NCBI RefSeq assembly: GCF_988242995.1
Contig: NZ_OZ547043.1
DNA: 64,000 nt
Reading direction: 5' to 3' (one strand)
Positions 19,728-26,003 of the stretch are shown here, piece after piece. The stretch's first letter is position 1, and each line of letters begins with the position of its first letter. The notes under the pieces are model-generated. The model saw only the letters and a list, made by a program, of their open reading frames with translations. It made no database searches and was not told where the DNA came from. The position numbers and the translations under genes are program-made.

Positions 19728-20111
19728 ATGAAGCTGACCATCATTCGATTAGAAAACTTTAGCGACCAGGACCGGATTGACCTGCAAAAGATCTGGCCGG
19801 AGTATTCCCCTTCCTCGTTACAGGTTGACGATAACCACCGTATCTACGCCGCGCGTTTTAACGAGCGCCTGCTCGCGGCCGTGCGGGTAACCTTAAGCGG
19901 CACGGAGGGCGCACTGGATTCCCTGCGCGTGCGGGAAGTCACCCGCCGTCGCGGTGTGGGGCAATATCTGCTGGAAGAGGTTTTGCGTAACAATCCTGGC
20001 GTTTCATGCTGGTGGATGGCGGATGCTGGCGTGGAAGATCGCGGCGTGATGGCGACGTTTATGCAGGCATTGGGGTTTACGGCACAAAAGGGCGGCTGGG
20101 AGAAGCGTTAA
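19728..20111 (+). CDS. panZ: PanD maturation factor (GNAT-like)
   Basis: 127 aa ORF between livK and livJ, matches remembered YhhK/PanZ (MKLTIIRLENFSDQDRIDL). Confidence 0.88.
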   Translation: MKLTIIRLENFSDQDRIDLQKIWPEYSPSSLQVDDNHRIYAARFNERLLAAVRVTLSGTEGALDSLRVREVTRRRGVGQYLLEEVLRNNPGVSCWWMADAGVEDRGVMATFMQALGFTAQKGGWEKR

Positions 20112-20152
20112 TCGTAAAGTTTGATTTCAAAAGTGATGACCAACGAGAAATT

Positions 20153-20252
<100 letters not shown>

Positions 20253-20310
20253 TGAAGCAACGTACTCGATATTAGCAATTTGGCGGCAACCCAAAGTTGC
20301 CGATTAATGA

Positions 20311-21414
20311 TTACTTCGCATCGGTCGCCGTGCCGTTGGCGTGCCAGTCAAATACGCCGAACTCAAAGCCTTTCAGATCGCCTTTCTCATCCCAGGTCAG
20401 CGGTCCCATCACGGTATCCACGGAGTTCGCTTTCAGGTATTTGGCGATTTCTGCCGGATCGTCAGACTGATTCAGGCCCGCCTGCAAAGATTGCAGCGCG
20501 GCGTAGGTGGTCCAAACGAATGCGCCGCTTGGGTCCTGTTTTTTCGCTTTGATCGCATCAACAATGGGTTTGTTCGCCGGAACCTGATCGTAGTTCTTCG
20601 GCTTGGTCACCAGCAGTCCTTCCGCTGATTCACCCGCAATGTTAGACAGCGAGACGTTAGCCACGCCTTCCGGCCCCATAAACTGAGTTTTCAGCCCTGC
20701 CGCGCGTGCCTGACGCAGGATTTGCCCCATTTCCGGGTGATAACCGCCGTAGTAAACGAAGTCGATATTCTCTTTTTTCAGACGCGCCACCAGCGTTGAG
20801 AAATCTTTTTCCCCAGCGGTGATACCATCAAAGAACACCACGTTAGCATTGCCTTTCTTCAGGCCGTCCTGCACCGCACGCGCCAGACCTTCGCCGTACT
20901 GCTGTTTGTCGTGGACGATAGCAATACGCTGCGGTTTCACTTTCTCAAGAATATATTTCGCCGCCGTCGGCCCCTGGTCGGAGTCCAGGCCGGTAGTGCG
21001 CAGGATCAGCTGATAGCCACGAGCGGTCAGCTCTGGCGCGGTTGCCGCTGGGGTGATCATTAAAATGCCTTCATCTTCATAGATGTCTGACGCTGGCTGC
21101 GTTGATGAAGAACAGAGGTGACCAATCACATATTTAATGCCGTCGTTAACGACTTTGTTCGCCACCGCAACCGCCTGTTTCGGGTCACAGGCATCGTCAT
21201 ATTTCACGATTTGCAGTTTGTTGCCTTTGATACCACCTTTAGCATTGATATCCGCAACCGCCTGCTCAGCACCAGTAAACTCCTGGTCACCGTACTGGGC
21301 CACCGGACCGGACATTGCGCCCACGACTGCAACTTTAATATCTTCTGCCAGAGCCATATTGCTGAATGCCAGCGCGATACATCCTGCCAGTAACGCTTTA
21401 CCCTTCATGTTCAT
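20311..21414 (-). CDS. livJ: Leu/Ile/Val periplasmic binding protein
   Basis: Start refined to [16 protein letters not shown] (signal peptide); 367 aa. Confidence 0.93.
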
Positions 21415-21685
21415 CCTGAGGTTCCCCATTCTTCTGGTTATTACGTGTGTTGTGATGTTGTTGTTCAGCACTTTATTTCGTTTTATGCATGACTACCCGT
21501 GCTTTAGCAGCATACTCTGCTAAAACATACCCGATTTTTATGATATTGGAATAGCTATTTTGACAGTTTATTAACAATCTGCGTGGGGATTGGCGTTTTG
21601 CCGGAGGGGGAAACTGATTATTGCAGAGGCCCAAAAAACAAAAACCCCGGATTCTCATCCAGGGTTCTCTGCTGAGTAGCGGAAA

Positions 21686-22540
21686 TTACGCTTCAATGGC
21701 AGCGCGAAGTTTTTTCATCGCGTTCTTTTCCAGCTGGCGCACACGCTCAGCGGAAACACCGTAACGGTCAGCCAGTTCCTGCAACGTGGACTTGTTGTCT
21801 TCATCCAGCCAGCGCGCGCGGATGATATCCTGGCTACGCTCGTCCAGACCTTGCATCGCGTCGGTCAGACGGTTTGCCGCCTGCTCTTCCCAGTTATCAT
21901 CTTCGATGCCGTCAGCAAAGTTAGATGATTTATCCTGCAGATAGAGCACCGGAGCCATCGGCTGGCTGTCGGAATCGTCGTCGGAAGACAGGTCAAAGGT
22001 CATGTCCTGTGCCGCCATACGCGACTCCATCTCACGTACGTCTTTGCTGGTTACGCCCAGTTCACGGGCCACCATTTCAACTTCATCCTGATTAAACCAG
22101 CCCAGACGCTGCTTGGTTTTACGCAGGTTGAAGAACAGTTTGCGCTGCGCTTTGGTGGTCGCAACTTTGACGATACGCCAGTTACGCAGAACGTATTCGT
22201 GGATCTCTGCTTTGATCCAGTGGACGGCGAAGGAGACCAGGCGCACACCCACTTCCGGGTTAAAACGGCGCACTGCTTTCATCAGGCCGATGTTACCTTC
22301 CTGAATCAAATCCGCCTGTGGCAGGCCATAGCCCGCATAATTACGAGCAATATGAACAACAAACCGCAGGTGAGACAGGATCAGCGTTTTAGCTGCTTCC
22401 AGATCGCCATGGTAATGCAGCTTTTCAGCCAGCGCCCGCTCCTCGTCAGCCGACAACATCGGCCACGCGTTAGCTGCCCGGATGTAAGAATCCAGGTTGC
22501 CAACTGGGGCTAAAGCTAAACTTTGCATTTTGTCAGTCAT
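21686..22540 (-). CDS. rpoH: RNA polymerase heat-shock sigma factor sigma-32
   Basis: 284 aa; sigma-70 family regions; full-length match to remembered RpoH ([24 protein letters not shown]). Confidence 0.97.
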
Positions 22541-22632
22541 TCAAATCCTCTCAATCGATATCTTCTGGCGCTTCAGTGGTAGCAACAACTGTGCCAGAGC
22601 TTAAGAGCAACGAGGTTATCATTCACTGTTTT

Positions 22633-22660
22633 ATCAGACCGTGATTTTATCCACAAGTTC
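22633..22660 (-). promoter_or_regulatory. candidate sigma-E-dependent rpoH promoter (P3)
   Basis: On the minus strand: GAACTT - 16 nt - TCTGAT, matching the sigma-E consensus, in the rpoH upstream region. Confidence 0.5.
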
Positions 22661-22784
22661 AATGCAAGCTTGTGAATAAATTACGCACAAAATATGACAT
22701 AGAGATGAAATACCGGGAAGAGACAACGGGGTCTCTTTCCCTGCTACGGAACCCATTGCAGGGAAAGAGTATAACACGCTTTTA

Positions 22785-23843
22785 TTATTCAGGCGTAAAG
22801 TGGCGTAAATGTTGTACCGTGGCAAGCCACGCTGCCACCCAGCCAATCATCGAGCATACCAGCAGCAACAGCAGGCATTCATCGAACGATAAGCCATTGA
22901 TATCAAACTTCGTTCCGAAAACCTGTGCCACTTCTGCAACCGCCGATGACAAACGCAGTACCAGAATTTCTGACAAAATTAATGACAGCAATGCGCCAGA
23001 AAATCCCAGCAATGCGCCTCCGTACAGGAACGGGCGCAGGATGAAACCATCCGTCGCACCAATCAGTTTTTGTACGTTAATGGAGTCACGGCGAGCAAAG
23101 ATGCTCAGACGCACACTGTTGCCGATGACGAGGAACACTGCTGCCACCATCAACACGCCGATCATCGCGGAAACGCGCCCGACCAGCCCGGTCAACGCCG
23201 CCAGACGGGCAAACCAGCTGTCATCCATCCGCACTTCGTCAATGCCGTTGATCTGGGTGATACGATCACGCAGCGTATTCAGTGATTCCGTCCCCTGAAA
23301 ATCGAGTTTCGGGATCACCACCGCCACTGCCGGAAGCGGGTTTTCTTCCAGCATATCCAGCGCGCCGCCAAAACCAGACCAGTTACGGAACTCGCCCAGC
23401 GCGTCTTCACGAGAAAGATAGTTCACTTTCTCTACGCCCTGCTCGGCCTGTAGCTGTGCCACCACGCCCGCAGCGGCGTCATCGTCCAGCGTTTTTTGCA
23501 GATAAACAGTGATTTGCGGTGACGGATAATACTGCGTCGCCGCCTGGTTAACGTTTTTGTACACCATATAACAGACGCTGGGCAGCGTCAGGGAGATGGC
23601 GATAACCATCACCGTTAAAAACGTGGCGAACGGTTTGCTTTTCAGATCCTGCAATGCGCCGTGGAAGGCATAGCGCACCTGTTCGTTGAAAACGTTGGTT
23701 TTGCGATTTACCGGTTTTGGCGAGGATTTCGCGCGTTTCGGTGCGTTACGACCGCCGTCGCCTGAGCCGCCGACCGATTTACGGAAGCGATCCAGACGCC
23801 CGCCAAACTGCCGAATATGATTGATTGCATCGCGCTTATTCAT
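22785..23843 (-). CDS. ftsX: cell division ABC-transporter-like permease
   Basis: Start refined to [15 protein letters not shown]; 352 aa; overlaps ftsE end. Confidence 0.93.
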
Positions 23844-24504
23844 GGCCCACGCCTCCATGCAAGTGACCATCGCTCAGGGTGAGCATGCGATAGGAACGCC
23901 GCGAAATCAGGTTGATGTCGTGCGTTGCCATCAATACGGTTACCCCAACGCGGTTAAACTCTTCAAACAGACGTAAAATGCCTTCCGACAACGCGTCGTC
24001 CAGGTTACCAGTCGGTTCGTCCGCCAGCAGTACCGCGGGCTTGTTCACCACCGCGCGGGCAATGCCAACACGCTGTTGTTCACCGCCGGAAAGCTGAATA
24101 GGGAAGTTCTTCGCTTTGTCCAGTAGCCCGACTTTATCCAGCGCCGCCGACACCCGGCGACGAATATCGTCACCGCTGGCACCGGCGATAATCAGCGGGA
24201 TCGCCACGTTATCGTAGACAGTACGGTCCATCAGTAGATGGTGATCCTGGAAAATCATGCCAATCTGGCGGCGCAGAAACGGAACTTCACGGTTTTTCAG
24301 ACGCGTGATGTCATGGCCGCTAAACCAGATTTTCCCGGCGCTGGGCCGCTCAATCCCACAGATCAGCTTCAGGAGGGTACTTTTCCCTGCGCCGGAATGA
24401 CCGGTCAGAAACGCCATCTCACCCGGCTGCATATGGAACGTAACGCCCTGCAGCGCCTGTCTCCCACCGAGATAAGCCTTGCTGACATGTTCAAAGCGAA
24501 TCAT
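23836..24504 (-). CDS. ftsE: cell division ATP-binding protein
   Basis: 222 aa; Walker [10 protein letters not shown], signature LSGGEQQR. Confidence 0.96.
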
Positions 24505-24506
24505 TG

Positions 24507-26003
24507 TTAATCCTCTCGGGCAAAAAGTGCCTCTATAAAGTCGTCCGCCTTAAACGGACGCAAATCCTCAATACGTTCGCCGACACCAATGTAGCGGATA
24601 GGGATACCAAACTGGTCAGCCACCGAGAAAATTACCCCGCCTTTCGCCGTGCCGTCCAGTTTCGTTAGCGTGATGCCGGTTAAGCCAACGGCTTCATGGA
24701 ACAGTTTGGCCTGGCTTACCGCGTTCTGCCCGGTGCTGGCATCGATAGTCAGCATAACTTCATGCGGCGCTTCAACGTCGAGTTTCTTCATCACGCGGAC
24801 GATTTTCTTCAACTCTTCCATCAGGTGCGATTTGTTCTGCAGGCGTCCGGCGGTATCGGCAATCAGGACGTCGATATTACGCGCTTTAGCGGCCTGAATG
24901 GCGTCGAAGATAACAGAGGCGGAATCCGCACCGGTATGCTGGGCAATCACCGGAATATTGTTGCGCTGACCCCAGACCTGAAGCTGTTCAACCGCTGCCG
25001 CACGGAAAGTATCGCCCGCCGCCAGCATCACCGATTTACCCTGCTGCTCAAACTGACGTGCCAGCTTACCAATCGTCGTGGTTTTACCCACACCGTTGAC
25101 GCCCACCATCAGGATCACGAACGGCGTTTTACCTTCAACATTCAGCGGCTCATCGACTTTCGCCAGAATCTCGCCCATCTCTTCTTTCAGCAGGCCATAG
25201 AGCGCTTCGGCATCACGAAGCTGCTTGCGGGATGCGCCTTCCGTCAGATTGGTGATAATTTTACGTGTGGTTTCCACGCCCACATCGGCGATCAACAGCT
25301 GTTCTTCCAGCTCTTCAAATAGATCATCGTCGATTTTTTTACCGCGGAACAGGCTGATAAATCCGGAACCGAGATTTTCTTTGGTTTTTAACAGGCTGCG
25401 TTTCAGGCGCGCGAAGAAACCTTCTTTGGTCGGTTTTTCCTGCTCCTGAGCGATTTCTTCCACCGGCTGCTCTTCTTCTGCCGGAGGAACCACCATCACC
25501 GCCTCTTCTGCCGCTTCGGCAGCCAGCGCCTGTGCTTCCAGCTCTTCGTCGGTGATTTCTTCTTTAGCCGCTTCTTCTTCCGCCGCTTCGACAATCTCTA
25601 CGGTTTCCGCTTCGGCCTGCCACTCTTCTGGCGAAACCTCTTCGGCGTTGACGTCCTCCGGCAACGGCAGCTCTTCACGCTCGATAGCCACTGGCTCCGG
25701 CGTTTCTTCTACGACCGGTTCCGGCTGTGCAACGACTTCCGCTTCAGGCTGCGCTTTTTCACTTTCAGCAACCTGTTCAGAGACTTCCACAACGTCGGCA
25801 GCAAAAGTTTCCGCTTCGGCCTCAGTATGCGCCTGCGGCTGCTCTTCAACGGCTTGTTCCGAAGCCTTCGCAGGCTCTTGCGCCTGAACGATTTCTTCTA
25901 CAACCGGTTGTTCATTCTGAACTTCTGTCTCTTTTTCCGGGGTCTGCTCTTTTTGACCAAAGCCCAGCCAGGAAAAAAAGCCACGTTTTTTTTCTTTCGC
26001 CAT
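24507..26003 (-). CDS. ftsY: signal recognition particle receptor
   Basis: 498 aa; acidic low-complexity N-terminal domain plus C-terminal SRP GTPase domain (GVNGVGKTTTIGKLA). Confidence 0.96.
   Translation of the reverse strand: MAKEKKRGFFSWLGFGQKEQTPEKETEVQNEQPVVEEIVQAQEPAKASEQAVEEQPQAHTEAEAETFAADVVEVSEQVAESEKAQPEAEVVAQPEPVVEETPEPVAIEREELPLPEDVNAEEVSPEEWQAEAETVEIVEAAEEEAAKEEITDEELEAQALAAEAAEEAVMVVPPAEEEQPVEEIAQEQEKPTKEGFFARLKRSLLKTKENLGSGFISLFRGKKIDDDLFEELEEQLLIADVGVETTRKIITNLTEGASRKQLRDAEALYGLLKEEMGEILAKVDEPLNVEGKTPFVILMVGVNGVGKTTTIGKLARQFEQQGKSVMLAAGDTFRAAAVEQLQVWGQRNNIPVIAQHTGADSASVIFDAIQAAKARNIDVLIADTAGRLQNKSHLMEELKKIVRVMKKLDVEAPHEVMLTIDASTGQNAVSQAKLFHEAVGLTGITLTKLDGTAKGGVIFSVADQFGIPIRYIGVGERIEDLRPFKADDFIEALFARED

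Follow-up and report, generated by a model that had tools for sequence, protein, structure and literature searches.

Among the promoters of rpoH, the Escherichia coli gene for sigma-32, P3 is the one assigned to the envelope stress factor sigma-E (RpoE), which was itself identified through initiation from rpoH P3 at lethal temperature; the promoter is also stimulated by ppGpp and DksA (reviewed in PMC8103513). Purified E. coli E-sigma-E and the SigE holoenzyme of Bordetella both transcribe an isolated rpoHP3 template in vitro (PMC3490749), and an rpoHP3::lacZ fusion, which serves as the standard sigma-E reporter, shows a 3.8-fold rise in activity in an rseA deletion strain (PMC4759930). The MicA paper describes rpoH P3 as "exclusively transcribed by sigma-E", and in Rhodius 2006 (PMC1312014), the section "The Core sigma-E Regulon" credits sigma-E with enhancing the expression of sigma-32 (b3461). 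The arrangement extends beyond the enteric bacteria, the fam promoter of Bordetella bronchiseptica being a SigE-type promoter of an rpoH homologue (PMC3490749).

The rules for sigma-E promoters were derived from 28 mapped starts (Rhodius 2006, PMC1312014). They comprise a -35 motif, GGAACTTTT, and a -10 motif, (T/C)GGTCAAAA, separated by a spacer of 15-19 nt, with 16 nt strongly preferred; a discriminator of 5 or 6 nt, which places the purine start 26 or 27 nt from the -35 element; and an A/T-rich window of 30 nt upstream of the -35 element. Two sRNA promoters of strain MG1655 display this geometry, with the annotated first base of the sRNA at +1 in both cases: micA reads GAACTC-16 nt-TCTGA-6 nt-G(+1), and rybB reads GAACTT-16 nt-TCTTA-6 nt-G(+1).

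Here, we analyzed a DNA stretch of 64 kb (hereafter, the window) from an E. coli other than K-12, which contains the ftsX-rpoH locus. Matches to a 501-nt query at 95% identity or higher were found in 5425 of the 5426 complete E. coli genomes and invariably fell under rpoH and ftsX; the best of these matches are 99.8% identical. The preliminary description had pointed to GAACTT and TCTGAT with 16-nt spacing on the rpoH strand, and its coordinates, strand, and spacing all proved exact (Table 1). On that strand (minus), the sequence runs ...AAGCTTGCATT GAACTT GTGGATAAAATCACGG TCTGAT AAAACAGTGAATG..., with CATT directly before GAACTT and AAAACAG directly after TCTGAT. The hexamer TCTGAT occupies 22638..22633; its first five bases, TCTGA, form the sigma-E -10 core, and the discriminator starts with the sixth, T 22633. 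The promoter elements lie 93-120 nt upstream of the rpoH ATG (22540), the -35 element beginning at -120.

Table 1. Promoter elements and neighboring features at the rpoH locus (window coordinates)
Feature	Position	Strand	Remarks
Sigma-E -35 element GAACTT	22660..22655	-	6/7 of consensus GGAACTT; preceding base T, not G
P3 spacer GTGGATAAAATCACGG	22654..22639	-	16 nt
Sigma-E -10 core TCTGA	22638..22634	-	Counterpart of TCAAA in the 2006 consensus, conserved C included
rpoH coding sequence (sigma-32, 284 aa)	21686..22540	-	Gene driven by the promoter; open reading frame, rpoH in RefSeq E. coli annotation
Leader of the predicted P3 transcript	22541..22626	-	Holds the sigma-54-type element and the RBS GAGAGG
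A/T-rich stretch at the position of an UP-like region	22663..22692	-	20/30 A/T (67%), moderate
Perfect DnaA box TTATCCACA	22647..22655	+	Within the P3 spacer; shares one base, the last T, with the -35 element
DnaA-box-like sequence TTATTCACA	22671..22679	-	8/9; 10 nt upstream of the -35 element
Sigma-54 -24/-12 pattern TGGCACAGTTGTTGCT	22596..22581	-	Only perfect match in the window; rpoH leader
Extended -10-like sequence TGTTATACT	22776..22768	-	9 nt after the ftsX stop; no good -35 hexamer

Comparison with rpoHp3 of K-12 MG1655 (NC_000913.3; MG1655 coordinate = window coordinate + 3,578,243) revealed identical -35 element, spacer, -10 element, and leader, with the same gene neighbors, ftsX upstream and livJ downstream, and no functional difference between the two. 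Across 281 nt, from the last part of ftsX through the intergenic region into the beginning of rpoH, the sequences differ at one position, which falls outside the promoter: the window carries T at 22694, roughly 67 nt upstream of the predicted start, where MG1655 has C. Four further divergent E. coli strains likewise have C here, so that T would seem to be a rare variant among strains. Given the identity with K-12, the sigma-E dependence of the site in the window is taken from the literature.

Measured against the motifs of Rhodius 2006, the site reads TGAACTTGT, 16 nt, CGGTCTGAT. TGAACTT agrees with GGAACTT at 6 of 7 positions, the spacer has the preferred length, and TCTGA agrees with TCAAA at 3 of 5 positions. 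The match to the classic GAACTT/TCTGA consensus is circular, because that consensus was derived partly from rpoH P3 itself. Where the spacer meets the -10 core, the final CGG of the former and the TC of the latter fit the extended -10 motif (T/C)GGTC, with CGGTC present exactly in CGGTCTGAT. Upstream of the -35 element, the local GC content is 0.35, a modest A/T enrichment in the place of an UP-like region. At 6 nt past TCTGA and 27 nt past the -35 element, there is a purine, A 22627. The micA and rybB promoters share with rpoH P3 the elements GAACT(C/T) and TCT(G/T)A and the 16-nt spacer, their 6-nt discriminator and purine start would have counterparts in the predicted P3 start, and the micA -10 core is identical to that of P3. 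When their geometry is applied to rpoH P3, the start is predicted at A 22627, equivalent to position 3,600,870 of MG1655 and 87 nt before the ATG. Unlike rpoH P3, which drives a sigma factor gene, micA and rybB drive porin-repressing sRNAs, and their promoters have neither a DnaA box in the spacer nor an additional promoter cluster.

Published box identities tie the elements in the window to the P3 of the literature. According to the MicA paper, the -35 and -10 boxes of micA are 85% and 100% identical, respectively, to those of rpoH P3; the comparison with the window gives 5/6 for GAACTC and GAACTT and 5/5 for TCTGA and TCTGA. Since the reported values fit only GAACTT and TCTGA, the published P3 boxes are those at 22660..22655 and 22638..22634. 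A full-text literature search for the promoter sequence itself returned a qPCR primer in an enChIP paper as its sole match. In the ChIP-chip data of Cho 2014 (PMC3923258), the sigma-E region SigE_39 spans 3,598,793-3,599,393 in an older MG1655 numbering, which is offset by ~1,977 bp from NC_000913.3, as checked on the glnA-typA spacer. After conversion, SigE_39 corresponds to window positions 22527-23127 and contains the P3 site, although the region is 600 bp wide, so that P3 is inseparable in it from the neighboring promoters. Collectively, the K-12 identity, the literature, the micA box identities, and the ChIP-chip region uphold the earlier assignment: the element is almost certainly rpoH P3, the sigma-E promoter of the E. 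coli sigma-32 gene.

We considered whether the hexamers resemble a sigma-E promoter by chance, the true P3 lying elsewhere in the 245-nt intergenic region. In favor of this reading, the relaxed pattern is not above chance, with 7 matches in the window against 4.1 expected when up to 2 mismatches are allowed. The statistical case is therefore made by the exact match, its position, strand-specific conservation, and a weight matrix from other genera. A single copy of GAACTT-N16-TCTGAT was found in the window, both strands considered, and none in 100 dinucleotide shuffles; there is also no second GAACTT-N16-TCTGA in the window. The matrix was built from 29 rpoH-upstream sites of other genera, with Escherichia, Citrobacter, and Enterobacter left out. 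It assigns 21.2 bits to the P3 site, the highest score in 128 kb, as opposed to 10.4 bits for the runner-up in the window, and of 300 random windows generated with a first-order Markov model, a single one reached 21.2 bits anywhere. No second site was found with this matrix on the rpoH strand of the intergenic region. With the P3 block, moreover, invariant in related genera (see below) and the micA identities fitting these very boxes, a fortuitous resemblance appears extremely improbable.

Strand-specific conservation was assessed in a scan of species-representative genomes, which yielded 80 rpoH loci (81 counting the window) from gamma- and betaproteobacteria, ranging from Enterobacter and Citrobacter to Vibrio, Haemophilus, relatives of Pseudomonas, xanthomonads, Bordetella, and Burkholderiales. 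A loose sigma-E pattern, GAAC[TC][TA]-N15-17-TCNNA, searched in the 350 nt upstream of rpoH, was conserved in sense orientation at 32 of the 81 loci and missing from the other 49; the controls gave 1 match in the upstream antisense strand, 1 in the coding sense strand, and 0 in the coding antisense strand. At the motif-bearing loci, the -35 element mostly begins 70-200 nt before the start codon. Among close relatives, four divergent E. coli strains, Citrobacter werkmanii, and an Enterobacter sp. all carry the block GAACTTGTGGATAAAATCAC[G/T]GTCTGATAAAA without change, whereas the eight bases directly 5' of the -35 element vary freely. Citrobacter and Enterobacter have the full GGAACTT. The sole variable position of the P3 core is 22640 in the spacer, two bases before the TC of the -10 element, where CACGGTC alternates with CACTGTC; the T form is common to some E. 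coli strains (loci L086 and L087), Citrobacter (L017), and Enterobacter (L002).

Farther afield, the motif was found upstream of rpoH in Haemophilus, Vibrio, Stutzerimonas, xanthomonads, Bordetella, Paraburkholderia, and others. These RpoE/AlgU/SigE-type (ECF02) promoters of rpoH homologues carry sense-strand GGAACTT-N16/17-TCNNA, as in E. coli P3. Nevertheless, their spacers and flanks are unrelated to those of P3, their -10 element is often CACTC(T/C)NA rather than CGGTCTGA, and they lack the enteric DnaA and sigma-54 elements. Within the Enterobacterales, the P3-type motif is degraded in Photorhabdus (L003; TAACTT...TCTGG), and a sigma-E motif is absent upstream of rpoH in two A/T-rich, reduced-genome Pantoea insect symbionts (L005 and L006), a pattern that hints at loss or divergence of the sigma-E-rpoH link in some members of the order.

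The same bases invite another reading, in which they serve mainly as a DnaA/CRP-CytR operator and supply the -35 region to the sigma-70 promoter P4, the sigma-E match being secondary; P4 is described as overlapping the P3 region of rpoH. The perfect DnaA box within the spacer, TTATCCACA, is the only one in the window and is kept in Citrobacter and Enterobacter. Of the second, DnaA-like box, the E. coli strains and Enterobacter have an intact copy, and Citrobacter has TTATACACA. DnaA is said, in work by Wang and Kaguni from 1989, to repress rpoH P3 and P4. A CRP-like site, CGTGATTTTATCCACA, overlaps the DnaA box, but the CRP pattern is not above chance. There is sigma-70, sigma-S, and sigma-54 ChIP-chip signal over the region (Cho 2014, PMC3923258), and rpoH was dropped from one sigma-E data set for high sigma-E-independent activity. 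Such overlap is nonetheless compatible with sigma-E function; in vitro, sigma-E holoenzyme transcribes P3 from an isolated fragment, which is also employed as a sigma-E-specific reporter, and a generic sigma-70 scan had no match at P3. We thus regard a primarily operator or P4 role of these bases as very unlikely and retain their assignment to the sigma-E promoter P3. As for regulatory consequences, the spacer DnaA box could condition the envelope-stress induction of sigma-32 on replication-initiation status and, separately, upstream input (UP or CRP/CytR) could be changed by the T at 22694. Both propositions are highly doubtful, and either effect, if true, would be a refinement of a known system.

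The remainder of the rpoH upstream region holds further promoter-like elements. The sigma-54-type element TGGCACAGTTGTTGCT presumably corresponds to the described rpoH P6, and Citrobacter and Enterobacter retain its GG and GC dinucleotides. A published RpoN gSELEX peak (converted, at about 22604 in the window) and a sigma-54 ChIP-chip region (PMC3923258) coincide with the element. Next to ftsX, the extended -10-like sequence TGTTATACT is probably the major rpoH promoter P1. The generic scan for sigma-70 promoters and terminators called none of the known rpoH promoters, TGTTATACT included, and is uninformative on sigma-E. Its sole sigma-70 match, TTGAGA-16-CAAAAT with a TG (22527-22554, minus strand), lies over the RBS and start codon of rpoH and was dismissed as a chance occurrence (1 against 0.7 expected).

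Just past ftsX, at the start of the putative P1 transcripts, two tandem hairpins (22718-22764, minus strand; CCCUGC..GCAGGG and AGAGAC..GUCUCU) have a folding energy of -27.8 kcal/mol with a z-score of -4.1, and the first of them is kept in Citrobacter and Enterobacter. As a T-run is missing, the hairpins were not scored as an intrinsic terminator. An Rfam scan of positions 20000-25000 gave no match in the rpoH leader or promoter. Downstream of livJ, it matched naRNA4, a REP-derived nucleoid-associated RNA, at 20221-20276 on both strands, with 40.4 bits against a gathering threshold of 59.5; this sequence is most likely an ordinary REP element.

Finally, rpoH P3 is an already known promoter and textbook biology, and nothing new is learned about it here; the case serves instead as a positive control, in which an alternative-sigma promoter was located by eye from sequence alone. 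Sigma-E is freed from RseA by DegS and RseP. The amount of free sigma-E increases when the envelope is stressed, under extreme heat, or as cells enter stationary phase, and the sigma-E holoenzyme then binds GAACTT (-35) and TCTGA (-10), 16 bp apart, and opens the DNA. Transcription is predicted to start about 6 nt downstream of the -10 element, near 22627, giving an rpoH mRNA with an 87-nt leader. The outcome is more sigma-32, through which envelope damage is tied to the chaperones and proteases of the cytoplasmic response. P3 is, in this way, the link from envelope stress, sensed through sigma-E, to the cytoplasmic heat-shock regulator sigma-32.
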